Origin: a virus
DNA: 64,000 nt
IMG/VR virus record: IMGVR_UViG_3300048856_000029
Span: 24,846-88,845 of that record
Direction: 5' to 3' (one strand)
How positions within the stretch are numbered: the first letter of the stretch is position 1; each line of letters begins with the position of its first letter. Both the position numbers and the translations under genes were made by a program. The notes under the pieces were generated by a model that made no database searches, was not told where the DNA came from, and saw only the letters and a program-made list of their open reading frames with translations. This document shows positions 4,341 through 58,877 of this stretch, piece after piece.

Positions 4341-4886
4341 ATGAGTTATCCGATTGACTTTGCGCAGGTGCGCTTGGATTTCAAGGGCGGCAACTCCGAC
4401 AAATTTTACTATCTCACCATGCTGGCGAACAAGGACGGCAAGGCGATTGTCATTCGTCGTTTCGGCCGCAACAAGGCAGGCGCCTTCGGTGAAATGAAGA
4501 TCGACACCTTCGAGAGCCAGATCAAGGCCGAGAAGGAGTTCGAGAAGCTCTATGACGAGAAGACCCGCAAGGGCTACTCAGTCACGGGCTCACCTCAGAA
4601 TATAGCGGCTGGAGATCAGGCCAGTCTGCGCATAGCCGTCGGCCCGGCTGTCTGGAGCAAGTTGCCGCCATCGGCGATCCAACACCTCGATCTCCGCATC
4701 CCGACCGACGGGCGCAAGGAATTGGGTGACACCCGCTTTGACGAAAACGGCAAATTCGTCGGCGAACCAAAGCCGAAGACCTTTTCGGCCGAGGAGATCG
4801 CCGAAGCACGCCGGCTCGAGCAGGAAGAGGCGCAGCGCGAAGCTGAAAAGGCCTATGCCGGGAACTCGCTCTATGGCCGCTTCTGA
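4341..4886 (+). CDS. WGR-domain protein with C-terminal YGRF tail
   Basis: SDKFY...RRFGR...AEKEFEKLYDEKTRKGY WGR pattern; ends YAGNSLYGRF*. Confidence 0.8.
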   Translation: MSYPIDFAQVRLDFKGGNSDKFYYLTMLANKDGKAIVIRRFGRNKAGAFGEMKIDTFESQIKAEKEFEKLYDEKTRKGYSVTGSPQNIAAGDQASLRIAVGPAVWSKLPPSAIQHLDLRIPTDGRKELGDTRFDENGKFVGEPKPKTFSAEEIAEARRLEQEEAQREAEKAYAGNSLYGRF

Positions 4887-5145
4887 CCTTCTCGGCGGCC
4901 TGTATCTGCGTGTTCACGAATGGCCGCGCGCTGATTTCAAGGATCTGCAGCAGGCGCTGATCACCGAGCTGGTGATGCGGGAAGACCTCGAGGATCTGAT
5001 TGGCGAGTTCACCGATCCTCACGACAGGACCGAGGCTCGCATCCGTGTATCGATCAGGCGCGCTCAACGACAACAGCACCGAAACGAGGTCGAGCGACAA
5101 AAGTCCGCCGATCCGAAATACGGCAAACTCTACGGGAGATTTTGA
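4873..5145 (+). CDS. Hypothetical protein with C-terminal YGRF tail
   Basis: ATG at 4873 overlaps the upstream gene end; ends DPKYGKLYGRF*; TGATG-coupled to the next gene. Confidence 0.65.
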   Translation: MAASDLLGGLYLRVHEWPRADFKDLQQALITELVMREDLEDLIGEFTDPHDRTEARIRVSIRRAQRQQHRNEVERQKSADPKYGKLYGRF

Positions 5146-5771
5146 TGGCCCTCTATCTCAGCCTATCGATGAAGAACCAGTTCCAATTCGTATGCCCCAT
5201 CTTCAACGCCAAGACCAAGATGGCCGCTTGCGTCATGCTCCGCGACCGCGTCTGGGCGGGATTCCGACCCGAGAAGCGCAAGGCGTGCCAGGTTGCGATG
5301 GACTGCTCCATGTGCCCGGTCGTCGCGATGGTCAAGAACATGGGCATGATCAATGGCGAGCTCACGTCCGATGATTACGGCTCACTTGAACCGAAGGTCG
5401 GCCGGCTGCACGCCGATATCCTCGAGCGGATCAAGAACATCATTCCCATTCCGTCGATCTTGAAGAAGGCGGATATCACGGCCGAGGAACGTCAGCTTTT
5501 GCTGACCACTCGCGGCCGGATCGAGGATCAGCTCAGGACTGCGCCTGGCCGTAACGGCAAGGCAACCGCCTACATCGCGCCGCAGAAGATCACGTCCTCA
5601 TTCACCTCCTTGCAATCGGCTTCGAAACGCGGCCGCAGGGACGAGGATCAGATCGACCAGACGGTCGAGACGCCGACCAGGCGCACCAAACCGACCCCCA
5701 CCAACAACATGATCAACGAGGCTGCGAGAACCGGCGATATGAGCGCCGCAATCAACGCCGCAGCAGCATAG
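5145..5771 (+). CDS. Cys-rich hypothetical protein with GDMSAAIN tail motif
   Basis: CPIF, CVM, CQVAMDCSMCP; ends EAARTGDMSAAINAAAA. Confidence 0.75.
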   Translation: MALYLSLSMKNQFQFVCPIFNAKTKMAACVMLRDRVWAGFRPEKRKACQVAMDCSMCPVVAMVKNMGMINGELTSDDYGSLEPKVGRLHADILERIKNIIPIPSILKKADITAEERQLLLTTRGRIEDQLRTAPGRNGKATAYIAPQKITSSFTSLQSASKRGRRDEDQIDQTVETPTRRTKPTPTNNMINEAARTGDMSAAINAAAA

Positions 5772-5779
5772 GAGAAGAC

Positions 5780-7315
5780 ATGAACGCTGCCGAAGCATTG
5801 GAGCGAATTAACGAAATCGCTAACGCAGGAGGTCGCAACGAAAAGCAAACGCTGCTCGCCGGCTTGCTGCAGGACGATCTCGGTCAATTCATCATCAAGT
5901 GGACCTACGATCCGTTCATCACCTACGGCGTTAAGGTCAAGAAGCTGCCGACCTATGCGCAGGAAGGGCCGGTCGAATTTACTGACAAGGTGGTCGAGCG
6001 CGTCCTGACGCAGCTTTCCACCCGCGAGCTGTCCGGTAACGCCGCGAAGGATGAAATCGAGATGTTGTTTGGCGGGCTGGACAATGCCGGCCGCGATCTG
6101 CTGTTTCGCATTCTGAGCAAGGATCTGAAGGCAGGTATCGCCAATTCGACGATCGAAGCCGTCATGCCGGGTTTCCTGCCGACCTTCGGCGTCATGCGCG
6201 CCCATCCTTACGAGGAAAAGCGGGTTATGCAGTTTCCGGTCCCGGTCGAGCCGAAGCTCGACGGAATGCGCTGCACCTTTATTGCGAAAGACGGGAAGGG
6301 GGCTTTCTTCACTCGCTCCGGCAAGGCGATTGAAAGCCTGCAATACCTGGCGAAGCCCTTGCTCGACGCCGCGTCGTTGATCGAGGCGCACGCAGCATCT
6401 GCCGAAGTCGACGACCACTATCGCAACCTCGCCAACTATCTGTTCGGCAGGGATGAAATGCCTGCCTTTGTGCTCGATACGGAGTCGATGAACGGGTTGT
6501 TTGCAAATTCCGGTGCCCTGCGCCGTAAGGGCGAGGAAGCCCGCGACGCCGAGCTGCACGCCTTCGACATTCTGCCCTATGATGGCTTTTTCGGCAGTGC
6601 CTCCTTCCTGGTGCCGTGGGAACAGCGCCGTGCTTTGCTTGAAACCTTCGTTAGCCAGGTCCGCGAGTTCACCCGGGCGCCGGTCTATGCGACCGAGATC
6701 TATGAGGCGAACTCGCACGAGGAGATCGAGGCCCTTTACGAGCGCATGATCAACCGAACGCTCGCCAACTATCTCGCCCGCGGGGACCAGGAGCGCGAGA
6801 AGGAGCTGGAGAAGATCACGGTGGACGACGCGACCGGCGAGCTGAAGTGCCTCGAGGGCGCGATGGTCAAAACCTATGACGGCGCCTACGAGAAGAAGAA
6901 ATCCTACACCTGGCTGAAGATCAAACCCGAGGACACAATCGACCTTTTCATCGTCGGCTTCTTCAACGGTGAGGAGAATAGCGAGAACGAAAACCGCATG
7001 GGCGGCGCGATCGTTGATCATAAAGGCGTCAACGTGCGCGTAGGCGGTGGCTGGAAAAGCAAGGAGCGCGAAGAACTCTGGGAAGACTGGTGCCACGACG
7101 CCAATATTCTGGGCATCGATCCGCATGTCGGCTTCAAACCTGGCTGGTCGACCTCGTTCGAACAGATCCAGCGTCACGCTCATCGCTTCAAGTTCCTCGG
7201 CCGCATGACCGAGTTGGAGTTCAACGAGGTTACGCCTGACGGCTCGCTGCGCCACCCGCGCCAGAAGCGCTTCCGCGATGACAAGGCCGGCGAGGTATTG
7301 CGGGAAGCCGCGTAA
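5780..7315 (+). CDS. ATP-dependent DNA ligase (T4 gp30-like)
   Basis: Motif I EPKLDGMRC, TRSGK, EGAMVK, WLKIKP, SLRHPR. Confidence 0.93.
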   Translation: MNAAEALERINEIANAGGRNEKQTLLAGLLQDDLGQFIIKWTYDPFITYGVKVKKLPTYAQEGPVEFTDKVVERVLTQLSTRELSGNAAKDEIEMLFGGLDNAGRDLLFRILSKDLKAGIANSTIEAVMPGFLPTFGVMRAHPYEEKRVMQFPVPVEPKLDGMRCTFIAKDGKGAFFTRSGKAIESLQYLAKPLLDAASLIEAHAASAEVDDHYRNLANYLFGRDEMPAFVLDTESMNGLFANSGALRRKGEEARDAELHAFDILPYDGFFGSASFLVPWEQRRALLETFVSQVREFTRAPVYATEIYEANSHEEIEALYERMINRTLANYLARGDQEREKELEKITVDDATGELKCLEGAMVKTYDGAYEKKKSYTWLKIKPEDTIDLFIVGFFNGEENSENENRMGGAIVDHKGVNVRVGGGWKSKEREELWEDWCHDANILGIDPHVGFKPGWSTSFEQIQRHAHRFKFLGRMTELEFNEVTPDGSLRHPRQKRFRDDKAGEVLREAA

Positions 7316-7391
7316 GTTTTCCGACGCACGCCGACTCCAGCTTACTATTATATAGCTGACGACATTGTCGTTTTGTCTCTCTCTCAACTAA

Positions 7392-7419
7392 GGGCGATCC
7401 TCACGGATCGCCCATTTTT
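7392..7419 (+). terminator. Rho-independent terminator after the ligase operon
   Basis: GGGCGATCC-tcac-GGATCGCCC followed by ATTTTT. Confidence 0.8.
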
Positions 7420-7504
7420 ATTACTCCGATTTAGGTAGATTTAGGGCTATTGCTGCAACCCAAGGTCGGGCGCATCATCTTCCTTTATGCCAAGGGAGGA
7501 CGCC

Positions 7505-8014
7505 ATGGGTATCGCTGTTTCGCGAGCAGGCATCGCCGTGCTCATAAGTTTGCTGGCTCAGCCAGCGTCGGCCGATTTTTGGAAAGACATCAATCCGCTC
7601 AGACCTATAACGCCGAACTGGGGACCACTCATCCCCAGGCCTAAGACTCCGGGCGAGGTTCTTCCTCCATGTTGGGGGAGCCCGCAGACCTGTCGCCCTG
7701 ACCACCCTTCGATGAGAGGAGATCAGCCTCGGTATCAACCGTATCAACAGCCGGTCGTTCGTACTTCAGCGAACGCGGTGTGTGTTTGTCTCGAGCGCGA
7801 TGGGCGCTTGGTCGCATGGTTCAACTATCGCCCCTCTGGATATGGCTCGGCGCCAAGACTCCATGTCTCGGCGCAAGGGTGCGATGGGTTCATTCAATGC
7901 AATTACCAATACTACACCAGGTTTAACTCAAGCATCCGAACGATCGGGTGGAGCTATCGTCAAAACACTCTCAACGGTCACACCATCTATCTGTTGACGG
8001 GACTTAAAGAGTAG
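7505..8014 (+). CDS. Putative exported accessory protein (moron)
   Basis: AGGGAGGA RBS, hydrophobic signal peptide ending PASA, Pro-rich then Cys-containing domain, lower GC. Confidence 0.6.
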   Translation: MGIAVSRAGIAVLISLLAQPASADFWKDINPLRPITPNWGPLIPRPKTPGEVLPPCWGSPQTCRPDHPSMRGDQPRYQPYQQPVVRTSANAVCVCLERDGRLVAWFNYRPSGYGSAPRLHVSAQGCDGFIQCNYQYYTRFNSSIRTIGWSYRQNTLNGHTIYLLTGLKE

Positions 8015-8021
8015 CGGGACC

Positions 8022-9131
8022 TCATCGACTTCGCCGCGCGATTTCATCAGTCAGATTGACCTTGCCTTCGCGGACAAGCCTGATCATCGCACGGTAATAT
8101 CCGCCCACATTCTTGATGGGATCCGCGCCAGGCGCCGGGGTTAGCTGCAGTTGCACCACATAGACGAGGACAGCCGCGGCCAGCAGCGGGCCAACCGCGC
8201 CGCGGGCCTCCTCCCAAGCCGACGGGCTGACGCCGAAGCCGCCCCGCATTCGCTCCACATTACCCACAAACTCCCGGTCGTTCCGCGCCGGTCCCACAAA
8301 CTCCATCGCATCCGGGCAGGATCTCGCCAAATCGCCGGCGTTCAAACCCGGGGCAGGCCGTTCCCGCCCCTCCATAACTCCTAAGCCGTTGTTACAAGAC
8401 TCATCAGGGGCATATTTGTTGTTGTCTTTGTGCCGGCAAGAATTGCCGCCACAGGCGGTATAATACAGTGCTTCGGCCTCTTCCCTGACTGCCTGCCACT
8501 CCTGTCGGAACGGATCGGCCAGTCCCGCGGTCGATCGCCGCGGTGTGACTCTGGCGAGCTCGATGGCGCGCTTCGTCAGTTCAGCAATATCTTGCTCGGG
8601 AAAATGCTCGGCGATAGCCCTGAGCGCTTCCTGGGCTGCCCTGCGATGAATCGTAAGCTCATCGAAGGCCAGCGATCGTTCGCGCTTCAAATCGTCCAGC
8701 GCCTGCTTGCGGGCGCGCAGCTCCTGGACCTGATTGAGAAGAGGGGAGAGGTCAAAGCCATAGGCCCGGATGATCTGCCCGTTTGCCGCTCTCTGCGCGA
8801 ACCTTTTGCCGTTCGGTGAATCCTTAGAGCAGACGACGCCCAAGGAAATCAGTTGACGAAGGCAGAAACGTAGAGTCCGGTCAGGAATTCCCGTGCTCTG
8901 CGAAAGGAATTCGTTCGAGGGCCAGACAAGGATTCGACCCTCGATCGGCTGATTTCCATAGACCCCAACAAGGTGATCAAGGATTTGTCGGCATTTGGAC
9001 GTCAAATTCAAGACCTCGCCGGCGAGCCGGGCAGCCTCGAATAGTTCTTTCTTTTCAGTGGTTAGCGGTTCGCTGTTATCCGGGACAATAGGATTCAGCG
9101 CACGCCAGCCGGTAGACTGCGCGTTCCTCAT
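8022..9131 (-). CDS. repC: RepC-type plasmid replication initiator (repABC/repC family)
   Basis: VWPSN, DSPNGKRF, AYGFDLSPLL N-terminal motifs and IKNVGGYYRAM C-terminal motif; ATG 9131 (alternative GTG 9170). Confidence 0.93.
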   Translation of the reverse strand: MRNAQSTGWRALNPIVPDNSEPLTTEKKELFEAARLAGEVLNLTSKCRQILDHLVGVYGNQPIEGRILVWPSNEFLSQSTGIPDRTLRFCLRQLISLGVVCSKDSPNGKRFAQRAANGQIIRAYGFDLSPLLNQVQELRARKQALDDLKRERSLAFDELTIHRRAAQEALRAIAEHFPEQDIAELTKRAIELARVTPRRSTAGLADPFRQEWQAVREEAEALYYTACGGNSCRHKDNNKYAPDESCNNGLGVMEGRERPAPGLNAGDLARSCPDAMEFVGPARNDREFVGNVERMRGGFGVSPSAWEEARGAVGPLLAAAVLVYVVQLQLTPAPGADPIKNVGGYYRAMIRLVREGKVNLTDEIARRSR

Positions 9132-9183
9132 GATTATTTCCTTATCACGAGGCAAAGCGATGCCGTTCACTTCCGAAGAAGTG

Positions 9184-9285
9184 TTGACAAATCACTGGTG
9201 ATTCGGGATAACCAAGGTGCGAAGATGGTTTAATCACCAGTCACTATTTAAAGGCCTCGGGACGCCAATCCTGGGGCCTTTTGCT
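9184..9285 (+). ncRNA. ctRNA (repC antisense RNA) with its promoter and terminator
   Basis: TTGACA at 9184, GATAAC 17 bp later, terminator stem AAAGGCCTCGGGA/TCCTGGGGCCTTT (9250-9281), antisense to the repC leader as in repABC plasmids. Confidence 0.75.
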
Positions 9286-9289
9286 TTGC

Positions 9290-9891: not shown

Positions 9892-10290
9892 ATGGTAACG
9901 AGCATTCACCCGTTCGCTGACAGCAAGGTGACAAAGTTTCTGCAGGAGCGCCTGGCGCAACTGGCTGATCGCAAGAGCGAGCGGCAGGTTGCAGCCGAAG
10001 CCGGCTTTAAGTCCCTCAATATCGTCAACATGATGAAAAAGGGTGACTCGAAGGTGCCGCTTGACCGCGTGGCTGGTTTGGCACGCGCCCTTGAAACCGA
10101 TCCGACGCATTTGTTCATCCTCGCGTTGGATCAGTATATGCCCTCGGACGCGCCCGAGATGTCGATTGCATCGACCATCCTCAGTAAGAATGAGAAGGCG
10201 ATCATCGACTACATACGCGAGGTCTCTGGTTCCTCCGATCCTGGTCTTAACGACCAGCGTAAGGAAGCCATCAAAAAGACCTTTGCCTGA
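9892..10290 (+). CDS. XRE/Cro-C1-type HTH regulator (candidate repressor)
   Basis: SERQVAAEAGFKSLNIVNMMKKGDSKVPLDRVAGLARAL HTH pattern. Confidence 0.8.
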   Translation: MVTSIHPFADSKVTKFLQERLAQLADRKSERQVAAEAGFKSLNIVNMMKKGDSKVPLDRVAGLARALETDPTHLFILALDQYMPSDAPEMSIASTILSKNEKAIIDYIREVSGSSDPGLNDQRKEAIKKTFA

Positions 10291-10314
10291 AAATCCTAAC
10301 TTTTAACCACTAAT

Positions 10315-15723: not shown

Positions 15724-18700
15724 TTGCACGCCATTCTCGCAGCACGAACCGACTTCTCGCTTGGCGAAAGTATCCTGACCGCTGAAAAGCTGGTCGATAT
15801 CGCCAAGGACACCGGTGCGAAGGCAATCGGCATCACCGACACAATGGCGATCACCGGTATGATCGACTTCACCAACCGCGCCAAGAAAGCCGGCGTGAAG
15901 CCCGTCATCGGCGTCAGGCTTCGGCTGTCGGAAGATCCGACCTGGCGTCCGGCGAAGGGCCAGAAGAAAAAGAACATGCCGCCCGAGCACTTCCTGTCCG
16001 CTTACGTGCTGACCGAACCGGGCATGAGGGCTGTCTATCGTCTGCTGACCAAGGGCAATTCTGCTGACCGCTTCTACTATACGGCGAAGCTCTCATATCA
16101 GGATCTCTACGACGAGCTCGACAGGATCGGCGAAGGCCACCTCGCCTTCCACCTTGGCGACACCCATGGCGTCATCATTCGCCCCGACATCGCCGATATC
16201 GTGCATGAGCTGGTCAGCCGTGTGGGCAAGAATTACATCTTTGCGCCGCTGATCGCGATGAACACGCCCTATTTCGGCGCCATCAACGCCCGCTCGCTCA
16301 CGCTGATCAAGGATCACGGCCTCGAGCCGCTGGTGATCCGGCCCGCCTACTACGAGCAGGACCAGGCCGACGCGCACGAGATCCTGACCGCGATCGCCGC
16401 GAACAACAAGGTGACGGACGGCTGGCACAAATCGACCTTCAACCGCGACTTCCACGTCATGAAGTCGGGCGATCTGGTCGAGGAATGCAAGCAGGCTGTC
16501 AATCATCTGACTCTGCGCGGTTTGAGCGGCGTCGGCCCGATTTTCAAGACCGGACTCATGAACACCGATCGCCTCGTCGATATGGTGACATACACCTGGG
16601 AAAAGCAGCCCGTCTCCCTGCCTGTCATGGCTGCGGACGAGTTCGCCAAGGTAGTCGAGGAATGCAAGAAGGGCTGGGCCGAGCGCTTCAGCCAGGAAGT
16701 CTTCGGACACAAGCCGACCAAGCAGGAGCTCATCGAGGTTTATAAACCGCGCCTCTCCTACGAGCTTGAAGTCCTCAAGAAGCTCTCATTCTCCGGCTAC
16801 TTCCTGCTCGTGCAGGACGTCGTCCAGTTCTCCAAGAACGCCGGCATCCTCGTCGGTCCTGGTCGTGGTTCCGTGGGCGGCTCCCTCGTCGCGTATCTGA
16901 TGGGCATCACCGACTGCGACCCGCTGCGGTTCGGGCTGCTGTTCGAACGCTTCATCAACCCTGAACGTATCGACTTGCCTGACGCCGACTTGGACTTCAT
17001 GTCCGAGCGCCGGCACGAGGTCGTCGATTACCTGGTGCAGAAATACGGCGACAAGCGCGTAGCCGGCGTGTCGAATTTCGGGCGCCTTGCTGCCGCATCA
17101 TCGATCCGAGACGTCGCGAAGGCCTTCCAGATCCCCGAGAAGGACTATGCGGTCTCGAAATTCGTGCCGAAGAAACATGGCGCGAATGTGCCGCTGCCAG
17201 AATGCGCCGAGCAGGTCTCGGAGATCCAGGAGTTCGCCGAGAAGTGGCCGGCGCACTGGGATATCATGACGCGCCTTGAAGGGACGATCCGCAACCTGTC
17301 GCAACACGCAGCCGGCATCGTCGTCGCCGGCGTCGATATCGAGGAAAGGGCCGTTGTCGAGCGGCGCAAGGGTGACAGCGCCGTTGTCTGTTGGGACAAG
17401 CGCATCGTCGAGGACCAGGGCCTGGTCAAGATGGATATCTTGGGCCTCAACACGCTCGACCTGATCGCGCTGGTGCTGAACTATATCCGCGAGCGGCACG
17501 GCAAGCGGATCAACCTGATGAAAATCCCGCTCGATGACGAGCCGACGCTTAAGAACTTCGCCGACGGACTGACGGTTGGCGTCTTCCAGTTCGAAAGTCC
17601 TGGAATGCGCAAGCTGCTGCGCGAGCTCGGCAAGGACGGCTGCATTAGCTTCGACGATATCACTGCGGCGACAGCGCTCTACCGACCTGGCCCGATGGAG
17701 TCAGGCATGATGGACAGCTATTACCTGCGCAAGCAGGGACTGGAGTCGGTCGACTATGATCATCCGCTGATGGAAGACGTGCTGCGCGAGACATATGGCG
17801 TCATCGTCTACCAGGAGCAGGTCATGAAGATCTCCCAGGTGATCGCCGGCTATTCCGGTGCCGACGCCGATAAGCTGCGCAAGATCATGGGTAAGAAATT
17901 GCCCGAGGAGATGAAGAAGGAGCGCGGCAAGTTCGTTGACGGCTGCGTCGCGACGATCCGCTGTGAAGCGGACTGGGCAGGCGCTCTGTTCGACAAGATC
18001 GAAGGATTCGCTGGCTACGGTTTCAACAAGTCGCACTCGGTCGAATACACGCTGATCTCCTGGGAGTCGATGTGGCTAAAGACCCACTATCCGGTCGAAT
18101 TCTTTGCCGCGGCGCTCACGCTGCTCGATGAGGATCGTCTGCCAACGCTGCTGCGCGATATGAAGCGCTTCGGCATCGACATCAACATGCCGGATATCAA
18201 TCTGTCGTCCGATCGCTTCGAGATCCTGACCGACGTCCGGCTGTCGATCCCGTTCCAGCGCATCAAGGGTATCTCGACCAATACCGCGGCCGCGATCCTC
18301 GAGGCGCGCAAGGGTGGTGAGTTCAAGAACAAGAAAGACTTCCTCGATCGCGTCAACAAGTCCAAGTGCAACAAGCGACACCAGGAAGTCCTCGACCTCG
18401 TCGGCGCCTTCTCGCGCATCGAGCCTGGGCAGCCTGGTCCGAACGATCCGGGTCGCATCAGGGATCAGCTTGAGCTCCTGCCTGGGCTGATCACCGCGAA
18501 CGTCCCGGTGCAGCGCGACCTCGACAACACCAAGGAGGCAAAGCACGCCATTGCCGACATCGTCGCTGAGTATCGCGAGGAGCTGTCCGAGGATGGTCTC
18601 ATGGTGCAGCCGCTATTCGGCAAGAAGGCGCGCTTCATGATCATCACGGACGCGCCCAACAATCCGGAGGAGCAGGAAGGCATGATGTCCTATGGCAAGA

Positions 18701-19077
18701 TGTCTGCGCCTGTGATCGACGCGCTTGCCGCCCACGAATTCGGCCGCGACGATGTCTACTGGACTGCGATGCTGAAACGTCCGAAGGCCGGCAAACAGCC
18801 CTCCCCTGACGAGATCCGCATGTATTGGCCCTATCTCGAGAAGGAAATTCAAGCTCTGCAGCCGCCTGTCATCGTGCTGCTCGGTTCCTCGGTCCTGCGC
18901 AAGTTCCTGCCCGACTTCAAGGGCAAGGCGTCGGATGAAGCCGGCAAGGTGGTCTATTCGAAGGAGCTGGATGCAAACCTCGTCGTCGGCTTCAATCCCG
19001 GCGAGCTCTACTACGCGCCCGAAAAGATGGAGCAGCTCGAGGCTGTCTTCGCGTCGGTCGTGGATCTGATCGACTAA
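15724..19077 (+). CDS. dnaE: DNA polymerase III alpha subunit with C-terminal UDG-family-4-like domain
   Basis: PHP N-terminus, GPGRGSVGGSL, ERIDLPDADLDF, KMDILGL, GYGFNKSHS; C-terminal VYWTAMLKRP...EIQALQPPVIVLLG. Confidence 0.95.
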   Translation: MHAILAARTDFSLGESILTAEKLVDIAKDTGAKAIGITDTMAITGMIDFTNRAKKAGVKPVIGVRLRLSEDPTWRPAKGQKKKNMPPEHFLSAYVLTEPGMRAVYRLLTKGNSADRFYYTAKLSYQDLYDELDRIGEGHLAFHLGDTHGVIIRPDIADIVHELVSRVGKNYIFAPLIAMNTPYFGAINARSLTLIKDHGLEPLVIRPAYYEQDQADAHEILTAIAANNKVTDGWHKSTFNRDFHVMKSGDLVEECKQAVNHLTLRGLSGVGPIFKTGLMNTDRLVDMVTYTWEKQPVSLPVMAADEFAKVVEECKKGWAERFSQEVFGHKPTKQELIEVYKPRLSYELEVLKKLSFSGYFLLVQDVVQFSKNAGILVGPGRGSVGGSLVAYLMGITDCDPLRFGLLFERFINPERIDLPDADLDFMSERRHEVVDYLVQKYGDKRVAGVSNFGRLAAASSIRDVAKAFQIPEKDYAVSKFVPKKHGANVPLPECAEQVSEIQEFAEKWPAHWDIMTRLEGTIRNLSQHAAGIVVAGVDIEERAVVERRKGDSAVVCWDKRIVEDQGLVKMDILGLNTLDLIALVLNYIRERHGKRINLMKIPLDDEPTLKNFADGLTVGVFQFESPGMRKLLRELGKDGCISFDDITAATALYRPGPMESGMMDSYYLRKQGLESVDYDHPLMEDVLRETYGVIVYQEQVMKISQVIAGYSGADADKLRKIMGKKLPEEMKKERGKFVDGCVATIRCEADWAGALFDKIEGFAGYGFNKSHSVEYTLISWESMWLKTHYPVEFFAAALTLLDEDRLPTLLRDMKRFGIDINMPDINLSSDRFEILTDVRLSIPFQRIKGISTNTAAAILEARKGGEFKNKKDFLDRVNKSKCNKRHQEVLDLVGAFSRIEPGQPGPNDPGRIRDQLELLPGLITANVPVQRDLDNTKEAKHAIADIVAEYREELSEDGLMVQPLFGKKARFMIITDAPNNPEEQEGMMSYGKMSAPVIDALAAHEFGRDDVYWTAMLKRPKAGKQPSPDEIRMYWPYLEKEIQALQPPVIVLLGSSVLRKFLPDFKGKASDEAGKVVYSKELDANLVVGFNPGELYYAPEKMEQLEAVFASVVDLID

Positions 19078-19942: not shown

Positions 19943-19984
19943 CAGCGATTTTTCCAGTGCATTCCCTCTCGTGATCGTCTATTA

Positions 19985-20018
19985 TTCGATTAGCGATTTA
20001 GCGAAATCGCTAATCGAA
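19985..20018. repeat. Perfect 15-bp inverted repeat in the SSB leader
   Basis: TTCGATTAGCGATTT-agcg-AAATCGCTAATCGAA. Confidence 0.85.
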
Positions 20019-20069
20019 AAGCAGCAAAGCACGAAGCATCAACGCCAAAGCAGAAAAGGAAAAGCAGCA

Positions 20070-21020
20070 ATGGCCCTCTCTCCCGTCCTCCAGAAACTTG
20101 TCTCGCAGGCAGCGAACAAATATTCGCGCAGCTCCGGCTCGCGCATCAAGCCGAAGGAAGGCATCAACCGCTACCGCATCCTGGTTCCCGACGTAAACGC
20201 TCAGTTCTGGGCCGACCTCGGCGTCCACTGGATCAAGACCGAACTCTCCGACGGCGCCAAGCCGATCGCAGTTGTCGGTTGCTCTGACGTCGTCTACGGC
20301 ACGCCCTGCGCCATCGACACCGCTATCGACCAGGCCATCGGCTCCGCGATCGATGAAGATTCCAAGAAGCTGTACGAAAGCTGGCGCGCCCGCAAGTCGG
20401 TCCTCGTCAACGTTCTCGACCGCTCCAAGGGCTCGAGCGATCCGGACGCAGTTCAGATCCTGGAACTCACCCCGACCACGTTCGGCGCCATCATGGGCAT
20501 CGTCCAGCAGTTCGCCGAGGAAGGCGAAGATGTTCTCGACGCCAAGACCGGCATGGACATCGCGATCACCCGTTCCGGCAAGGGCCTCAACACCGAGTAT
20601 ACGGTGAACGTCGCTCCCGGTCAGTCGAAGCCGGTCACGAAGGCTCACCTCGAAGCCTGCCACAACCTCGTCGATCATATCGCGAAGGAATTCTTCAAGG
20701 GCGACGAGAACAAGGCACTCAGCGTCATCAGCCAGACCGCACAGATCAACGTGCCGCGTCTCGCTTCCAAGACGCCGACTGCCGCTCTGACCTCGAAGGC
20801 AGCTTCGGTGCCGGCAGACGACGCTGACGACGCAGCGGCCGATCTCGCCCAGGATCTCGAGGAAGAAGCCGTCGAGCAGGCTCCGGTCAAGGCCGCGGCC
20901 AAGACCACGACTGCCGCCCGCAAGCCGGCCCCGGCTCCCGAGCCGGAGGAAGACGATGCAGCCGCTTCGTCCGATGACGACGATCTGGCTGACGTCCTCA
21001 AGGATCTCGACGACCTGTAA
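20070..21020 (+). CDS. Single-stranded DNA-binding protein, T4 gp32-like
   Basis: RYRILVP, CAI, DIAITRSGKGLNTEYTV; acidic tail DDDDLADVLKDLDDL. Confidence 0.8.
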   Translation: MALSPVLQKLVSQAANKYSRSSGSRIKPKEGINRYRILVPDVNAQFWADLGVHWIKTELSDGAKPIAVVGCSDVVYGTPCAIDTAIDQAIGSAIDEDSKKLYESWRARKSVLVNVLDRSKGSSDPDAVQILELTPTTFGAIMGIVQQFAEEGEDVLDAKTGMDIAITRSGKGLNTEYTVNVAPGQSKPVTKAHLEACHNLVDHIAKEFFKGDENKALSVISQTAQINVPRLASKTPTAALTSKAASVPADDADDAAADLAQDLEEEAVEQAPVKAAAKTTTAARKPAPAPEPEEDDAAASSDDDDLADVLKDLDDL

Positions 21021-22144: not shown

Positions 22145-22338
22145 GTGCAGTCGCCATCACGCTTATCATCTGGCTCTATTTCTGCGGCCTGATCGCCACC
22201 GTCTACGTCATGGGGCAGCCGGATTGCCGCGGATATCGCAACCTGACCAGAGCTATCGCAATCCTTGTCTGGCCCGGCTTTTGGGTTGTCGTCTTCGTGC
22301 TCGGCGCGTTCGATGCAATGAGGACGCGCAATGTCTGA
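22141..22338 (+). CDS. Small membrane protein
   Basis: Two hydrophobic segments; ATGA overlaps at both ends. Confidence 0.65.
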   Translation: MSAVAITLIIWLYFCGLIATVYVMGQPDCRGYRNLTRAIAILVWPGFWVVVFVLGAFDAMRTRNV

Positions 22339-22861
22339 AGCCCGGAAAGCCCTCGAAGCCGCAATCGGCAAGATCGGCAAGGCCTACGGCGATCTGCTGA
22401 AGGTGGCCGAAAAGCACGGTGACGATATCGCCAAGGAAGACTACGAGAAGGCCCGCTACTACCTCGACCAGACCATCAAGAAGCTCTGGGACAAGGTCGA
22501 CGTGGTGCGCGACGTGGCAAAGGCGACGTCCGGCGAGTTTTCACTCGACAGTGTCGAAATGCCGGAAATGGTAGAGATGAAGTGGCTCGACAATGCCGGA
22601 GCAATGAGAACGTTCAAGGTGCCGGCCGACAGCGGGCTGGTGAAGCCGGACTGGGGCGGCCCGACCGGTGAGCCGCAGCAGACGCCTTCCGTTGATGGCC
22701 CGCTCGCAGTGAGCGACGGCAAGGTGCTCGCCAAGCAGATCGGCGGCCGGCTGACCAAGGCCGCTAAAGCTGCCCTCGCGCAATCAGTCAAAACTGAATT
22801 ACCCGAATCCTCATCGTCTGACGGCGATGGCGACGACGGTGTGGATTTTATCGACGACTAA
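22331..22861 (+). CDS. Hypothetical protein
   Basis: Coupled ORF with acidic tail DDGVDFIDD. Confidence 0.7.
   Translation: MSEARKALEAAIGKIGKAYGDLLKVAEKHGDDIAKEDYEKARYYLDQTIKKLWDKVDVVRDVAKATSGEFSLDSVEMPEMVEMKWLDNAGAMRTFKVPADSGLVKPDWGGPTGEPQQTPSVDGPLAVSDGKVLAKQIGGRLTKAAKAALAQSVKTELPESSSSDGDGDDGVDFIDD
22782..22801 (+). promoter_or_regulatory. Operator copy embedded in CDS upstream of recA
   Basis: AATCAGTCAAAACTGAATTA. Confidence 0.6.
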
Positions 22862-27781: not shown

Positions 27782-28132
27782 ATGCAGCTTTACAAGATCG
27801 AATACGACCAGCTCACCCTGGTCAGCGTCTTTGACGAAAAGGGCACGAAGATCGGCAACAAGGAGGAGCGTATCCGCCTGTCGATGAACGACCTGCCGCT
27901 CCAGACGGCGCAGATGTATCGCGACAAGATGAAGGGCTTGAACTTCGTCATGACGGCGCAGGCGCTGTCGCGCGACGAGCCGCGCACCCGCAAGCAGAAG
28001 AAGATCTACGAGCGCGAGGCGAGAACCGCTGCGCCGAAGACGGTCACTCCGCAGAAATCGCGCGAGGAGCAGCTCAAGGAAGCAGCTCAGTCCGGCGACA
28101 TGGCCGCGGCAATCAACATGAGGAGCAAGTAA
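27782..28132 (+). CDS. Hypothetical protein with GDMAAAIN tail motif
   Basis: Ends KEAAQSGDMAAAINMRSK; GGAGAG RBS. Confidence 0.75.
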   Translation: MQLYKIEYDQLTLVSVFDEKGTKIGNKEERIRLSMNDLPLQTAQMYRDKMKGLNFVMTAQALSRDEPRTRKQKKIYEREARTAAPKTVTPQKSREEQLKEAAQSGDMAAAINMRSK

Positions 28133-30646: not shown

Positions 30647-31084
30647 ATGGCGATGCTGACCGAGGCAATGATGCGGGAGGCCATGAACCAGATGAAGGAC
30701 GATCTCCCTCCCCTGGGAATCTCTTTCGACGTGGTCAAGCGGCAGACGATCCCGTTCATCGACTACCCGTCGGACATCTTCACGGCGACCGCGCAGAAGA
30801 ACATGACCGCGACCGAAGTCGAGCAGGCGAATGCCCTGCGTGAGACGGTTTGGGCCAAGGCGATGAAAGAGCGTCGCGAAGGCAATCCGGATGATCAAAG
30901 CCTGTCACGCCTCGCCTTTGATCTGCGAGAGCTCCAGCGTGAGTTCAAGCGGGCGGCCGACGTAGTCAAGAGACTCGCCGACACCGTGCTCGACCAGGAC
31001 AAGCGGCTGAAGGCCCAAAAGGAAAAGATCGAGGAGCTGGAAGAGCGCCTCGACGCACACAACCCCAATTACGGAAGGTTCTGA
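30647..31084 (+). CDS. Coiled-coil hypothetical protein with C-terminal YGRF tail
   Basis: Ends DAHNPNYGRF*. Confidence 0.75.
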   Translation: MAMLTEAMMREAMNQMKDDLPPLGISFDVVKRQTIPFIDYPSDIFTATAQKNMTATEVEQANALRETVWAKAMKERREGNPDDQSLSRLAFDLRELQREFKRAADVVKRLADTVLDQDKRLKAQKEKIEELEERLDAHNPNYGRF

Positions 31085-50865: not shown

Positions 50866-50913
50866 ATACTGATTGACTGACATTCGAATCGGCGATAAGT
50901 GAACACTGAACAG
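50857..50913 (+). promoter_or_regulatory. Two tandem operator copies
   Basis: GATCAGTAAATACTGATTGA (50857) and GATAAGTGAACACTGAACAG (50894). Confidence 0.7.
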
Positions 50914-51375
50914 GAGAGAGCAATGCCTTTAGACCCAGATATACTGCGGTGCGCAATTGTCACCGCACCCTTCCGCGCGGGCAAATCCATTGCGCTGGCT
51001 GAATACGCCAAGCTGATGAGCGAAATGACCAAGGTGGTCGTGCCTGATCCTCGTGCGCGCGGCACGACGATGGGCACCATGATCGTCATGGACGAGTTCT
51101 ACCGCCCTCCTCCTTATCGCGTCGATTTTGCGCTTGTGGCGCAATTCAAGGACCACCGCTTCCCTGGCTGCACCGTGACCGTTCGGGAAGAGGATCTTGA
51201 GAGGCACGATCCACGCAACCGCAATCCACGCGCCGGCCGACAGAAGTGCTGGATCGTCTCGGGTGGCGGGACCGAGGACAAGACGCTCTACAATCTCAAC
51301 CAGGCAAAATTCATCGCTAAAACCCTGCACAAGCGCCTGGTCTCCGCTGCACTATCCTCCCGTTTTCCTTCGTAG
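50899..51375 (+). CDS. Hypothetical protein (start may be ATG 50923)
   Basis: CAGGAGAG RBS before MPLDP. Confidence 0.5.
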   Translation: MNTEQERAMPLDPDILRCAIVTAPFRAGKSIALAEYAKLMSEMTKVVVPDPRARGTTMGTMIVMDEFYRPPPYRVDFALVAQFKDHRFPGCTVTVREEDLERHDPRNRNPRAGRQKCWIVSGGGTEDKTLYNLNQAKFIAKTLHKRLVSAALSSRFPS

Positions 51376-52919: not shown

Positions 52920-52932
52920 AAGGACAAAGCCA

Positions 52933-53876: not shown

Positions 53877-54700
53877 TGCCGAACGTTGAATTCCATCTCG
53901 CGCAACTTCGGCACGCCTTTACGCAGCTCAACGCCGACACCGTCATCAATCAGAAGGATTTCGCCAAGGGCCTCCTGGCGCCGGCGATCACCCACTTCGA
54001 GAACGAGGAAAGTCTGTGGCGCTTCTGGAACGAGAAGGCTCAGACCCTCGCCGAAGAGAATATGCGCCTGCGCCTGACGCTCGGCTTCGTCGCGACCTGG
54101 GCCTGGCGCGAAGATCCGCCGAACGCAAACAACCGACTCACCGACGACGTGCGACTGTCGGCGATCAAATATCACCCAATCGTCAAGGACACTTGGGAGA
54201 CGGATAAGGCCAAGGCGGCAGATCCCGATCTACAGACCGCGTTCGATACCCTCACCTCCTGGCTTCTCAACAACACGGAGCAGGTTTTCGAAGAGGAACC
54301 GGAGATTGATGCAGCCCGAACCGCAATCGCAGAAAGGATGGTGAAAATGACCGATATCTTTGTATTTGGCTCCAACCTTGCGGGCCGACACGGCGCCGGA
54401 GCCGCGCTCTACGCCGCGAAGAATCGCGGCGCGATCTACGGTCAGGGCATCGGCTTGCAGGGCACGTCCTATGGCATCCCGACCAAAGATCGTCAGATCG
54501 AAACTCTGCCGCTCTCCGAAATCCGGCGCCACGTCAACGACTTCATCGTGTTCGCCAAGAGCCGGCCGGACCTGACCTTCGACATCACGCCGATCGGCTG
54601 CGGTCTCGCCGGCTACAAGCGGGCGCAGATCAAGCCGATGTTCGAAGGAATGCCGGCCAACTGCCGCTTCAACAAGACCTGGGAGGATCCTGATCTATGA
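53876..54700 (+). CDS. Hypothetical protein fused in frame to an A1S_2505-type (macro-like) phage domain
   Basis: From 54347: IFVFGSNLAGRHGAGAA...YGIPT...TPIGCGLAGY. Confidence 0.75.
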   Translation: MPNVEFHLAQLRHAFTQLNADTVINQKDFAKGLLAPAITHFENEESLWRFWNEKAQTLAEENMRLRLTLGFVATWAWREDPPNANNRLTDDVRLSAIKYHPIVKDTWETDKAKAADPDLQTAFDTLTSWLLNNTEQVFEEEPEIDAARTAIAERMVKMTDIFVFGSNLAGRHGAGAALYAAKNRGAIYGQGIGLQGTSYGIPTKDRQIETLPLSEIRRHVNDFIVFAKSRPDLTFDITPIGCGLAGYKRAQIKPMFEGMPANCRFNKTWEDPDL

Positions 54701-54978
54701 CCAAGAAAATATCACCGTCGGAAATCGAGTTCGACATCAAGAAGGGCAAGTCGGCCTGGGATCACAAAACGCCGGTCGTCTCCATCCTGATCGCCACGAA
54801 GGACGAAGACCACGATGACTCCGACAACCTCGGCCGTCACAACGTCTCCGACCTGCCCAAGATCATCGGCACTGAGCATTCGGAATGCTCCTTCGAGGTC
54901 CGCGACGGCGACCTTGACGACATCAAGGCGCAGATGATCGCGGCCGGCTTCACCTACAAGAAAATGAGGAATTGGTAA
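54697..54978 (+). CDS. Small hypothetical protein
   Basis: ATGA overlap upstream, TAATG downstream. Confidence 0.65.
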   Translation: MTKKISPSEIEFDIKKGKSAWDHKTPVVSILIATKDEDHDDSDNLGRHNVSDLPKIIGTEHSECSFEVRDGDLDDIKAQMIAAGFTYKKMRNW

Positions 54979-56428
54979 TGAGCAATATCTCGGGCAAGAC
55001 GCTCGTAGCGTGGGGCTTGCAGCCAGGCGCATGGTTCAAGGAAGCGCTCCCGCTCGCGCGCCAGCTCCGCGAGGACGGCAAGACGGACAAGGAGATCATC
55101 CAGGCGCTGTTCCCGATGCAGGCAACCAAGGCTGTCGAGGAAGGCGTGCCGCTGCGCACCAACAACATTCCGTTCGGCCAGTTCATCGAGCCGGAAGGGG
55201 AAGACGAGAAGGCCAACGTCGCCTCGGTTCTCGCTCACATGGATGCGCTGATGCGCGTCCCGACGATCGAGCGCGGCGCAGTCATGCCGGACGCTTGCCC
55301 GTCAGGCTCGGCAATGGGCACGATCCCGGTCGGTGGTGTCGTCGCCGCGAAGAACGCGATCCACCCGGGCTTCCATTCCGCGGATATCTGCTGCTCGATG
55401 GCGATCTCCGTCTTCAAGCGCGACGTGCCAGTCGACTACGTCCTGGATATCGCGATGAAGGCCACGCATTTCGGCGTCGGCAAACGAACGGCATCGGAAG
55501 CGCGCCAGCAGAAGGAGCTGGTGCAGTTGGTGAATGTCTTTGAGCAGAACCCCTTCCTCAAGGGTCTCGAGGACTATGCCATCCATCACTTCATGACCCA
55601 GGGCGACGGCAACCACTTCTTCTATGTCGGCGAATTGGAATCGACCGGGCAGTTGGCGATCGTCACGCATCATGGCTCTCGCGGACTGGGCGGCCAGCTC
55701 TACAAGCGCGGCAAGGCAGCGGCTGAACGCCATACCCGAATTGTCGCCGGCCGGGTGCCGTTGCACAACGCCTGGATCGAGGCCGACACCCAGGTCGGTC
55801 AGGATTACTGGCAGGCACTGCAGGCGATCCGCCTGTGGACGAAGATGAACCATTTCGCCATTCACAACCTGGTCGCCAAGCGCCTCGGCAATCAGATCAT
55901 CGGGCAGTTCTGGAACGAACATAACTTCGTCTTCCGGCGCTCCGACGGCCTTTTCTACCACGCCAAGGGCGCCACGCCGAATTTCAAGGGCTTCTCGAAG
56001 GACGACCAGGGCCTCACCCTGATCCCGATGAACATGAGCCAGCCGATCCTCATCACGGAGCATGTCAACAACGAGGATGCTCTGGGTTTCGCACCGCACG
56101 GCGCCGGCCGCAATCTCTCTCTCGCACCGGACACATCAAGCGCCTGATGGAAGAATTCGGCGATACGCGCGGTCTGGGGCCGAACGCTATCAAGGCGATC
56201 ATGGAGCGCGAAACCAAGGGGCTCGACGTCCGGTTCTACACCGGCGATCCGGACGTGTCGGAGCTGCCGAGCGCCTACAAGAATTCAGCCCAGGTTCAGG
56301 CACAGATCGAGAAGTTCGGGCTCGCCAAGATCTCCGATCGCGTTCTACCGCGCGGGTCGATCATGGCCGGCGAAATGAAGTGGCACAAGGGCAAGAAGCC
56401 CAAGGCTGACGCCGCTCAGACAGCCTGA
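54978..56428 (+). pseudogene. rtcB: RtcB-family RNA ligase interrupted by a 2-nt (TC) insertion near 56114-56123
   Basis: MPDAC, SADICCSM, GDGNHFF, HHGSRG, NEHN, HGAGRNLS; C-terminal SELPSAYK lies in the +2 frame (56147-56428). Confidence 0.85.
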
Positions 56429-56495
56429 ATCCGATCACCGACATGGGGAGCCGCATCCCGCGGCTCCCTCGCCTATCGAAGAGGAAGGAGGCATC

Positions 56496-56837
56496 GTGAC
56501 TGACGACGAGAAGAAGGCGCGCATCCGAGAACTGAATGACGAGTTGCGGCGAAAAGGTCATGCGCGCAACGGCAGAATGATTGCAGTCGGCGCACTAGCC
56601 CAAGACCATTATGTGAAAGGCCTAGCCGCCGCCGTCGCGGCCGGCCTCTTCACCGACTTTAACGAGGAAAATGATCCTCACGGCGAGCACGACTGCGCCA
56701 CGTTCATGTTCAACGGCGAGCGGTTCATGTTCAAGATCGACTATTTCGCCTTGGATGAAGAGACGCTCTCCGAGCACCCCGAGGATCCAAACATCACCAT
56801 CCGCATCATGAGCGTCATGTATGCCGAGGACTACTGA
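56496..56837 (+). CDS. DUF3768-family protein
   Basis: IRELNDELRR, DFNEENDPHGEHD, FKIDYF, MSVMYAEDY. Confidence 0.85.
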   Translation: MTDDEKKARIRELNDELRRKGHARNGRMIAVGALAQDHYVKGLAAAVAAGLFTDFNEENDPHGEHDCATFMFNGERFMFKIDYFALDEETLSEHPEDPNITIRIMSVMYAEDY

Positions 56838-57136
56838 TGCACGAGGCGCTGATCGAGTCATTCGTCGATAAGGTCAATCGATATTTCGTGGGGTTGACCG
56901 AGATCACGCAGGACGTCTGGAACGAGGACGAAAAGCCGACCTATCGCATTCAGGTCACTGCCCTCGCGGACGGCGTCAATGAGCACGACATCACCTGCAA
57001 AGGCGAACGCCGGGCGCGCCAGATCTTCAAAAAGTTCTGTCGAGAATACGGAATGACGGTCGAAAGCGACGATGGCGAGGCCGTGCCGGAGCCGAGGGCC
57101 GACTATACCGATAACCCGCTCTATGGTCGCTTCTGA
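56837..57136 (+). CDS. Hypothetical protein with C-terminal YGRF tail
   Basis: Ends YTDNPLYGRF*. Confidence 0.75.
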   Translation: MHEALIESFVDKVNRYFVGLTEITQDVWNEDEKPTYRIQVTALADGVNEHDITCKGERRARQIFKKFCREYGMTVESDDGEAVPEPRADYTDNPLYGRF

Positions 57137-57199
57137 TCCCAGTAGGAGCCCTTGTGCGCTCATGCGACACTGAGAGCATAGTGAATTGCAGAGGAATGA

Positions 57200-57460
57200 A
57201 TGAGCAAGAGACTGAGGATTCCGCAGGAGATCATCGACGTGCTTGAGGAGGTAGGCGACTACTCCTTCGAGGAAGGGACCAAGCACACCAAGATCCTGCT
57301 TTGCGGCCGGCAGGTCGGAATCCTACCGAACGGCAAGGGGCGTGACGGCCAGAACCGCGGCCGGCAGCACAAGAATACGGTCGCCGGGATCAAAAGAAAG
57401 ATCCGGGAGATCAAGGAAGCGGCTATGCAAACTGGCGCCGCAATGATAAGTCAATACTGA
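57200..57460 (+). CDS. Small basic protein, HicA-like fold possible
   Basis: EEGTKHTKILL pattern; no HicB adjacent. Confidence 0.45.
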   Translation: MSKRLRIPQEIIDVLEEVGDYSFEEGTKHTKILLCGRQVGILPNGKGRDGQNRGRQHKNTVAGIKRKIREIKEAAMQTGAAMISQY

Positions 57461-57464
57461 CTGC
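57445..57464 (+). promoter_or_regulatory. Near-consensus operator copy
   Basis: GATAAGTCAATACTGACTGC. Confidence 0.85.
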
Positions 57465-57476
57465 GAGGAGCAACCA

Positions 57477-57890
57477 ATGAACGTTTCCGTCCAGCACATG
57501 AACTTTCCCGCCCTGCTCTACCGGGTTGGCAACACCAAGACCAACCTCGGCTGCTGGTATGACGACGAAGGGCGCTCGACCGGCATCATTCACACTTTGA
57601 GCGATGGCCCGGCCAAGGTGCTGCCGATGGGCTGGCACCCGATCTTCAGCTCCGATTATCGGCGTTGGATCAGTGCGACCGATCGGCTCGCCGACATCGC
57701 CAGGTGGTTCAGCCGGAGGGACATGACCGAACTTCTGGAACGCGGCTACGCGCTCGAGGAGATCGCTGTCAGCAGCTACCGGCGCTTCCAGTTTGCAACC
57801 TACGGGCACGCCGTCTTCTGCGCCGAGGAGGTCATCTCCCGGAAGATGATCGAGCCCTGGCTGCCGTATGAGATGAGGAAGGCCGCCTGA
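57477..57890 (+). CDS. Hypothetical protein
   Basis: GAGGAG RBS. Confidence 0.7.
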   Translation: MNVSVQHMNFPALLYRVGNTKTNLGCWYDDEGRSTGIIHTLSDGPAKVLPMGWHPIFSSDYRRWISATDRLADIARWFSRRDMTELLERGYALEEIAVSSYRRFQFATYGHAVFCAEEVISRKMIEPWLPYEMRKAA

Positions 57891-58240
57891 TGTCCGCGGA
57901 GATCAAGACCCGCATCAAATGGCACACCGGTCACAGGACCGGTCGGGGCTTTGCCTATAGCTGGCGCATGGGCGACCGGCGCATTGAGGGCAAGCTCCGC
58001 GACAACGCGCTGGTGATCAAGGATTTGCTGCTGAGCGGCGATCCGGAGCACTTCATCGCCTCGCTGCGGAGCATCATCGAATACGGCAGGGTCGGCGAGC
58101 AGCGCATCGACTGGATCTACGTCGAGCAGATCAATTTCCGGGTCGCAAACCGCCTGGTTGCCGAGCTGCAGTTCCGTGTCGAGCCAGGCATCACCGTTGA
58201 TTGCTGGCGCCAAGCCGACGGCCTGGAGCTGCCGCTATGA
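57890..58240 (+). CDS. Hypothetical protein
   Basis: TGATG-coupled. Confidence 0.65.
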   Translation: MSAEIKTRIKWHTGHRTGRGFAYSWRMGDRRIEGKLRDNALVIKDLLLSGDPEHFIASLRSIIEYGRVGEQRIDWIYVEQINFRVANRLVAELQFRVEPGITVDCWRQADGLELPL

Positions 58241-58563
58241 GCCCGCTTCAATACGATACAAGCCGATGGACCCTGCTCTCGAGGAGCGGCAGATGGGCTC
58301 TGCTCACGTCGAAGACCCAGACCGATCAAGCCATGCTTGCGGAATACGCCGATGGCGAATGGGAATTAAATGAAACTGGAGACTTCGAAGCCATGCGGTC
58401 GAAGTTTACCCGCGTCACCGGTCAGGAACACGATAGCTATGGCACCATGACGATCGAAGGCTCAGACCATGAGCCGGTCAGGGTCCAGGTCATCATCTCC
58501 GATCCCATACAGCACAAGCCGGCCGATCCCTACGCAGACAATCCGCTATTCGGGCGGTTCTGA
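58237..58563 (+). CDS. Hypothetical protein with C-terminal FGRF tail
   Basis: Ends YADNPLFGRF*. Confidence 0.7.
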   Translation: MSPLQYDTSRWTLLSRSGRWALLTSKTQTDQAMLAEYADGEWELNETGDFEAMRSKFTRVTGQEHDSYGTMTIEGSDHEPVRVQVIISDPIQHKPADPYADNPLFGRF

Positions 58564-58877
58564 TGAAGCGAGGCGAAGGAAGACGCACCTGGCGCGAGCT
58601 TTATCCGGCCGAAGAATGGTCGACCGTCGAAGGCTTCACCGTCCACGGCATCAAATATGTCCTCTTCCGGCAGCGGGTCAGGTCGCCCAATCCACCGGCC
58701 GCTGTCCTATCGTTCGACGGCCAGCACGGCATGTTGCTCTGGGAGGTCGTCAACGAGGGCAACCTCATCGACGTGACCAACGCCTTCATGCAGCAGAAGC
58801 GCATCCTGACAGCCTCAACCTCATCGCCAAGAGAGCCGCGGGACTACCACGACCACCCTGATTTCGGCAGGTTCTAA
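58563..58877 (+). CDS. Hypothetical protein with C-terminal FGRF tail
   Basis: Ends YHDHPDFGRF*. Confidence 0.7.
   Translation: MKRGEGRRTWRELYPAEEWSTVEGFTVHGIKYVLFRQRVRSPNPPAAVLSFDGQHGMLLWEVVNEGNLIDVTNAFMQQKRILTASTSSPREPRDYHDHPDFGRF

Follow-up and report, generated by a model that had tools for sequence, protein, structure and literature searches.

Shared terminal peptides let bacterial hubs such as SSB (the protein that binds single-stranded DNA), sliding clamps and AAA+ proteases organise their clients, and few such motifs are known in bacteria. The beta-clamp motifs (QL[SD]LF, QLxLxL) and the PIP-box of PCNA are short peptides, often found at the very C-terminus, behind a flexible linker, which bring many unrelated DNA-handling clients, transposition proteins included, into one groove of one hub and which tolerate a few trailing residues as well as tandem copies. 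The SSB tip (D-D-D-I-P-F) and the acidic tails of T7 gp2.5 and gp4 follow a disordered linker and dock a terminal Phe in a hydrophobic pocket, and the T4 proteins gp43, gp33 and gp55, which are unrelated, share a terminal peptide read by one ring. With these systems and the C-terminal degrons the principle of a shared terminal tag read by one partner is already established; the motif described here appears to be an undescribed one. It was found in a stretch of 64,000 nucleotides (the window), which covers bases 24846-88845 of the 115,723-bp virus genome IMGVR_UViG_3300048856_000029 from IMG/VR and in which seven open reading frames (ORFs) end with a common decapeptide of about the form Y-x-x-N-P-L-[YF]-G-R-F. 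An earlier sequence-only reading of the window had proposed an undescribed tail-tag system of phages. The seven decapeptides quoted in it match the ORF endings exactly, and searches of the full-text literature with the tail strings and by topic gave no prior description of the motif.

Our data confirm that the shared tail is real and lies far beyond chance. When ORFs of at least 50 residues were collected in six frames from the whole genome (115.7 kb), every [YF]GRF found in them was one of the seven tails, and each of these is terminal. Amino-acid composition predicts 0.002 such endings among the approximately 170 genes, or 0.013 among 1,284 ORFs, compared to the seven observed; a first-order Markov simulation predicts 0.9 endings of the looser pattern per genome, again compared to seven. 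The codons of the tail vary synonymously: Gly is encoded by GGA, GGC, GGG or GGT, Arg by AGG, AGA, CGC, CGG or CGT, the Phe codons vary too, and the stop codon which follows is TGA, TAA or TAG. Since the codons differ synonymously, the constraint acts on the peptide and not on a DNA repeat, as the sequence-only reading had argued.

The same ending is present throughout the related phages. Our comparison set consisted of this genome, the Rhizobium phage RHEph10 and five more complete relatives of 115-120 kb (G001-G005). Each of the six relatives has between four and nine ORFs ending in [FYW]-G-x-[FYW], which makes 48 tails in the seven genomes, all of them on the coding strand and none seen on the opposite one. 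In this set [YF]GRF stands at the end of an ORF in 33 cases and inside one in four, against 3.5 internal occurrences expected by chance. The logo of the 48 tails reads Y(-10) x x [N/H](-7) P(-6) x [F/Y](-4) G(-3) x F(-1), with an invariant Gly at -3 and Phe as the last residue in 47 tails, and position -2 tolerates R, M, L or A (R in 36 tails, M in five, A in four and others in three). GRF is thus not a fixed element, as had been supposed: orthologues end in FGMF, FGLF or FGAF, and the constraint is [FYW]-G-x-F.

Two tailed proteins are common to all seven genomes. The first is a WGR-domain protein of 181 residues (4341..4886, + strand; Pfam WGR, E 3e-13), encoded after the primase gene, in which a charged linker leads to the tail YAGNSLYGRF; the second, referred to here as family A, has approximately 165 residues (162 in this genome; 30156..30644, + strand; YTANPLFGRF) and is encoded after a Rad50-like exonuclease gene. 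Further full-length homologues from the databases, six of the WGR protein and three of family A, are tailed in nine cases out of nine, and the WGR orthologues of the seven genomes and the six database homologues all end in NPxFG[RML]F, the copy in the window reading NSLYGRF. The tail is kept although the bodies of both proteins are just 30-50% identical between the phages. The remaining tailed families are lineage-specific, and at least one of them has lost the tail in this genome: the ORF at 50899-51375, a homologue of the tailed RHEph10 gp140, ends in SSRFPS. The full N/H-P-x-aromatic-G motif is internal only once in the seven genomes, in the family A protein of G002 (L035:4376-4870), where the tail is duplicated in tandem (ANPIFGAF-LIPNFGAF). 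The tail has been transferred between unrelated protein bodies, as was claimed from the sequence: a WGR domain, an SH3-like barrel, a coiled coil and, outside the phages, a resolvase.

Degenerate DNA patterns for the tail were scanned over IMG/VR and over one genome per species (185,579 species). In IMG/VR the matches fall in this phage group, its fragments and a few related prophage contigs. In the species genomes the in-frame endings in convincing genes come almost solely from Rhizobiales (Sinorhizobium, Mesorhizobium, Nitratireductor, Phyllobacterium, Ancylobacter) and Rhodobacterales (Cereibacter, Loktanella and other Rhodobacteraceae), one Loktanella contig having three tailed ORFs within 4.6 kb; a few candidate endings belong to other groups (Halothiobacillaceae L095, Komeilibacteria L108, Stenotrophomonas L146). 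Five IMG/VR matches of low G+C content and L010 were out of frame, most of the non-alphaproteobacterial genome matches were out of frame or in very short or doubtful ORFs, and all of these were treated as chance. Over both scans the convincing in-frame matches belong almost solely to Rhizobiales, Rhodobacterales or their phages. The notion of a phage-only system has to be abandoned, because the same tail occurs on serine recombinases of chromosomal islands and on other mobile-element proteins of these two orders.

Six of the genome matches are small serine recombinases, four with a clean full-length Resolvase domain (PF00239), one with the catalytic-serine motif (L114) and one represented by a tail-bearing fragment (L145). 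A homology search from the Sinorhizobium member gave a clade of approximately 250-residue recombinases in Rhizobium, Sinorhizobium, Neorhizobium, Mesorhizobium, Pleomorphomonas and Ancylobacter; the motif is terminal in 61 of the 68 clade members, with Phe last in all 61, and in five more a single G or S comes after it (GRFG, GRFS). The next-nearest paralogues (approximately 223 residues) stop right after the helix-turn-helix (HTH) DNA-binding domain and have neither linker nor tail. When 65 long-form recombinases were aligned, the linker held 1.1-1.8 bits per column versus 3.0-4.3 bits at the tail's Y, P, F/Y, G and F. The tailed recombinases adjoin BREX (BrxL, PglZ), DarT-NADAR (DarTG), restriction and GmrSD genes with no phage genes nearby (L136:8001-8750, L138:8001-8762, L055:4897-5646), and Cereibacter has two of them 3 kb apart. 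It may be that they mobilise or invert parts of the defence islands.

We propose that the tail is a portable short linear docking motif on a flexible linker, most likely bound by one conserved host protein, and we assign to this reading a probability of about 0.55. A terminal, disordered and sequence-specific peptide, placed on unrelated bodies after a variable linker, is the signature of such a motif. The AlphaFold model of family A (mean predicted local distance difference test, pLDDT, 84.7) suggests a helix, a small SH3-like barrel and a long helix, and its confidence drops over the final residues, to pLDDT below 50 at residues 160-162, so that the tip is predicted to be disordered. We infer that a protein reads the tail and that this reader is encoded by the host. 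A host protein that evolves slowly is the simplest explanation because the islands hold the tailed recombinases without nearby phage genes and without a shared element-encoded partner, and because the motif hardly differs between two bacterial orders. What stands of the interpretation first drawn from the sequence is the transferable tag on unrelated proteins, conserved and selected as a peptide; its restriction to phages and the fixed GRF do not stand.

The wider form of this proposal, a lineage-wide docking tag by which alphaproteobacterial mobile elements plug unrelated proteins into one conserved host hub, has roughly even odds. Its users would be this 115-120 kb phage group, other prophage-like elements and the small serine recombinases found in defence islands. 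A single conserved protein of the cell would bind the tail in a groove, the N-P-x-aromatic-G segment would probably form a turn that presents the aromatics at -10, -4 and -1, and binding would tether otherwise unrelated, mostly DNA-handling proteins to the hub. As the identifiable carriers act on DNA (WGR domains as sensors of breaks, resolvases by recombining it), we lean to a DNA-associated hub. Recruitment to such a hub, of which the beta sliding clamp is the archetype, nevertheless has a minor share of the probability, hand-over to a protease or adaptor has a slightly smaller one, and another host protein would account for the remainder, which is the larger part. The phage has a DnaE polymerase and no clamp gene of its own (no match to PF02767 in the genome). 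Should the proposal be true, the tail would define a hub-client system that is new and can be set beside the SSB tip or the clamp-binding motif, with a reader that could be fished with a ten-residue peptide. The motif is strongly constrained, sits on dozens of unrelated proteins without assigned function and ties proteins of the phage replication region to defence-island recombinases in agriculturally important rhizobia. The identity of the reader would give these hypothetical proteins a first functional handle and could expose a host vulnerability or control point exploited by mobile elements; a practical gain would be a minimal ten-residue tag for tethering or destabilising alphaproteobacterial proteins.

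Several results weigh against a conserved host reader. Domain and shared-protein searches found no reader: Pfam detected no peptide-binding domain in 20 conserved proteins of unknown function from the window and from related loci, while searches of the tail carriers with NCBIfam and PADLOC returned no naming family and no peptide-binding domain. Native proteins with this ending are almost absent from three host genomes, which were scanned for P-x-[FY]-G-x-F-stop and [FY]-G-x-F-TGA, and are essentially the recombinases alone, so there is no host client set pointing to a hub. A Cereibacter ORF ending in EDPFGAF was considered as a host client and rejected, being out of register. Position -2 shows a loose preference per genome (mostly A in G002, mostly M in G003), which could fit a reader encoded by the element itself. 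For the beta clamp in particular, the motif is devoid of the Gln and Leu pattern by which clamp motifs are defined. Clamp motifs dock in a hydrophobic pocket of DnaN, between its domains II and III. Complex prediction for Sinorhizobium DnaN and the Lon N-domain (residues 1-210) with a 30-residue tail (alignment of 27 rows) gave a score of 0.00, which speaks neither for nor against.

Comparison with the described systems shows likenesses and differences. The tail is like the beta-clamp motifs and the PIP-box in being a short peptide that ends the protein behind a flexible linker, in the variety of its DNA-handling carriers, in the few trailing residues and the tandem copy, and, for the PIP-box, in the polar-x-x-aromatic-x-x-aromatic spacing; one groove and one hub would complete the likeness. 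However, its first position is not Gln, Pro stands in the usual place of Leu, and one Gly is invariant; neither Gln at position 1 nor the clamp pattern of a hydrophobic residue at position 2 with Leu/Phe at positions 4-5 (or 4 and 6) appears in the logo of the 48 tails. The clamp clients of the hosts are without the tail motif, and nothing comparable was found at host DinB C-termini. With the SSB tip and the T7 tails it shares the disordered linker and the terminal Phe, but SSB offers one tail to many readers, whereas here many carriers probably have one reader; moreover the tail is not acidic, has R, M, A or L, usually Arg, at -2, and contains no acidic run ending in I-P-F. The clamp-binding C-termini of T4 offer a phage parallel in arrangement, yet this phage has no own clamp, the tag also exists outside phages, and the sequences are probably unrelated. 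The features of proteasome/HslV activator tails (HbYX, GQYL, HslU C-terminus), a penultimate Tyr for HbYX or else G-Q-Y-L, are likewise missing, the penultimate residue being R, M, A or L, and no HslV/proteasome-type peptidase (PF00227) was matched in the genome. Ligands of PDZ domains and tail-specific proteases, with Ser/Thr or a hydrophobic residue at P-2 and a hydrophobic one at P0, differ at P-2, which is the invariant Gly here, and their bacterial readers are periplasmic, whereas the tail carriers are presumably cytoplasmic, because the identified ones are DNA-handling (WGR, resolvase). The SSB tip, HbYX/GQYL and PDZ ligands, to which the sequence-only reading had likened the tail, thus part from it at their defining residues.

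The tail could alternatively be a C-terminal degron, or a dock for a protease or adaptor, which keeps mobile-element proteins short-lived. This is the main alternative, though an unlikely one, and its candidate readers would be the Lon N-domain pocket, ClpXP acting via an alphaproteobacterial adaptor (RcdA, CpdR) and FtsH. Lon and ClpXP count recombinases and phage regulators among their classic substrates. The aromatic or hydrophobic last residue of Lon-type degrons is present here, with Phe in 47 of the 48 tails from phages and in every one of the 61 tailed recombinases, and the motif is almost never internal. Among Lon degrons (Caulobacter LarA, E. coli Sul20) there is also an alphaproteobacterial precedent, since a conserved pocket in the Caulobacter Lon N-domain, with Arg29, binds the terminal aromatic and carboxylate of LarA and does not bind the amidated peptide (PMC11882793), and the five-residue LarA tail is a transferable degron (PMC10665427). 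However, the LarA tail consists of five hydrophobic residues ending in His, of which the last residue alone is reported to be read specifically (PMC11882793, PMC10665427), whereas here six positions over ten residues are constrained. The five recombinases with an extra G or S, variants which persist, and the internal tandem copy of G002 are a misfit with a strict reading of the free carboxylate. As for the ClpX route, the SspB-alpha proteins of Sinorhizobium, Cereibacter and Nitratireductor end in VVSLDxFRK(K), a ClpX-binding tail unlike the motif.

It is improbable, although there is some support for it, that the mobile elements supply a reader of their own, for example as CobS/CobT (a MoxR AAA+ protein with a vWA partner), RepC or an uncharacterised core protein, with the island recombinases using a homologous or helper-supplied reader. 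The tag goes together with a large shared core (CobT, CobS, RepC) in seven of the seven phage genomes, WGR domains are known neighbours of MoxR-vWA systems, and the loose preference of each genome at position -2 would suit an element-encoded reader. The recombinase islands, however, are without the phage core genes, and the 20 conserved unknown proteins yielded no peptide-binding domain. Islands and phages share just two proteins, an XRE-type HTH protein (in one island) and a small signal-peptide protein, and no others; neither the HTH protein nor the secreted protein is plausible as a reader.

Still less probable is a nucleic-acid-binding hook, which would lend DNA-handling proteins an affinity for DNA or RNA and in which the tail would form a turn of the aromatic-Gly-basic-aromatic type, as at the tip of the beta-hairpin in ribosomal protein uS17. 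The identifiable carriers (the WGR protein and the serine recombinases) bind DNA, and we could guess the same for the family A barrel, a guess because the predicted fold is weakly SH3-like. uS17 is also the sole look-alike of the tail profile among PDB sequences (YxKHPLYGKF; E 0.6-1.6), but the match is not significant, as by a rough estimate approximately 0.15 such matches are expected by chance. Furthermore, a hook gives no reason for the strictly terminal position or for M, A and L replacing the basic residue, and the uS17 of the hosts reads RFxHP[IL]L[QK]K instead of YG[KR]F. Mimicry of uS17 was rejected, as the hosts' own protein is without the YG[KR]F part. In many bacteria the beta-hairpin tip reads Y-x-K-H-P-L-Y-G-K-F (uS17 chains 1rip_A and 28nt_q), near the tail consensus, and the likeness is probably a convergent turn. 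Least probable of all is a sorting signal (capsid loading or type IV secretion) or a nascent peptide acting at translation termination: C-terminal signals are known for type IV secretion, these taxa are rich in such systems and several of the tailed genes overlap the following gene or lie directly against it, but it is not obvious why chromosomal recombinases would be packaged or exported, VirB/D4 signals have an Arg-rich pattern that is missing from the tail, the recombinase genes show no coupling to a downstream gene, and the tailed phage genes stand among replication and nucleotide-metabolism genes rather than structural ones.

All seven tailed ORFs of the window are on the + strand, in three loci, and three pairs of them are adjacent or overlapping; their coordinates begin at the likely starts 4341, 4873, 30156, 30647, 56837, 58237 and 58563. 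Next to the WGR gene, a 90-residue protein (4873..5145; PKYGKLYGRF) begins with an ATG that falls within the Tyr-Gly codons of that gene's tail. Pfam, PHROG and NCBIfam searches gave no match for it, and it has a homologue in G004 and, via G004, in G005 and in RHEph10 (gp035), with the endings NYGRF or NFGRF. The family A gene is followed by that of a coiled-coil-like protein of 145 residues (30647..31084; DAHNPNYGRF), which has weak coiled-coil family matches alone and no homologue in the other six genomes. The third locus encodes a 99-residue protein (56837..57136; YTDNPLYGRF) with no family match and no homologue in the other six genomes, a 108-residue protein (58237..58563; YADNPLFGRF) with the tail retained in its homologues from RHEph10 (gp127) and G005, and a 104-residue protein (58563..58877; YHDHPDFGRF) whose start overlaps the stop of the preceding tailed gene and whose homologues in RHEph10 (gp126), G005 and G004 are tailed as well. 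Foldseek and Atlas searches with family A and with the 104-residue protein returned no informative relatives, and family A is without a known structural relative.

The nucleotide identity of the window to the Rhizobium phages RHEph10, RHph_N1_10 and their relatives is only patchy, at 79-82%. It is syntenic with RHEph10 for DnaB, primase, the WGR protein, ATP-dependent ligase, RepC, CobT/CobS, a sigma factor, the DnaE-type polymerase, SSB and RecA, and further for Mre11/Rad50-like proteins, ribonucleotide reductase, rIIA/B and ParAB. Whole contigs that belong to this group and have the size of such a phage (114-119 kb) occur in assemblies of cultured bacteria, such as a 118,187-bp contig of Phyllobacterium myrsinacearum (L073/L093) and a 114,107-bp contig of Ancylobacter rudongensis (L115), and contigs of the group are also present in the assemblies of Pararhizobium qamdonense and Rhizobium bangladeshense (P0128, P0130). 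Because whole contigs are found in bacterial assemblies and the genome encodes RepC and ParAB, the group probably follows a plasmid-prophage lifestyle.

The proteins shared by islands and phages were located as follows. A conserved protein of 132 residues lies between RepC and CobT (window 9892-10290); an XRE-type HTH homologue, 38-49% identical, stands beside the two tailed recombinases of Cereibacter (L114:5772-6212), and the phage protein is possibly an operator-binding regulator. The small signal-peptide family is found in two islands (L136:6622-6924, L055:6795-7064) and in several of these phages, among them RHEph10 (93086-93379) and this genome (89124-89468, genome numbering, outside the window; hmmsearch E 2e-15 for this copy). 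Two of the tailed recombinases are preceded by a DUF3102-like gene and a gene whose product has the N-terminal motif M-A-L-[ST]-N-A-E-[KR]-Q.

The window contains other C-terminal tails too. A second, acidic type is seen in DnaE (15724-19077), SSB (19971-21020) and a 176-residue protein (22331-22861), which end in VFASVVDLID, DVLKDLDDL and GVDFIDD, respectively; these are tails of the D-[LF]-[IL]-D type, resembling the replisome-coupling tails of T4 and T7, and all seven phages keep the DnaE ending in the form VF-x-SV-x-[DN][LM]L-x. Finally, two conserved and otherwise unrelated proteins, encoded at 5142-5771 and 27782-28132, share the ending G-D-M-[SA]-A-A-I-N (...TGDMSAAINAAAA and ...SGDMAAAINMRSK).

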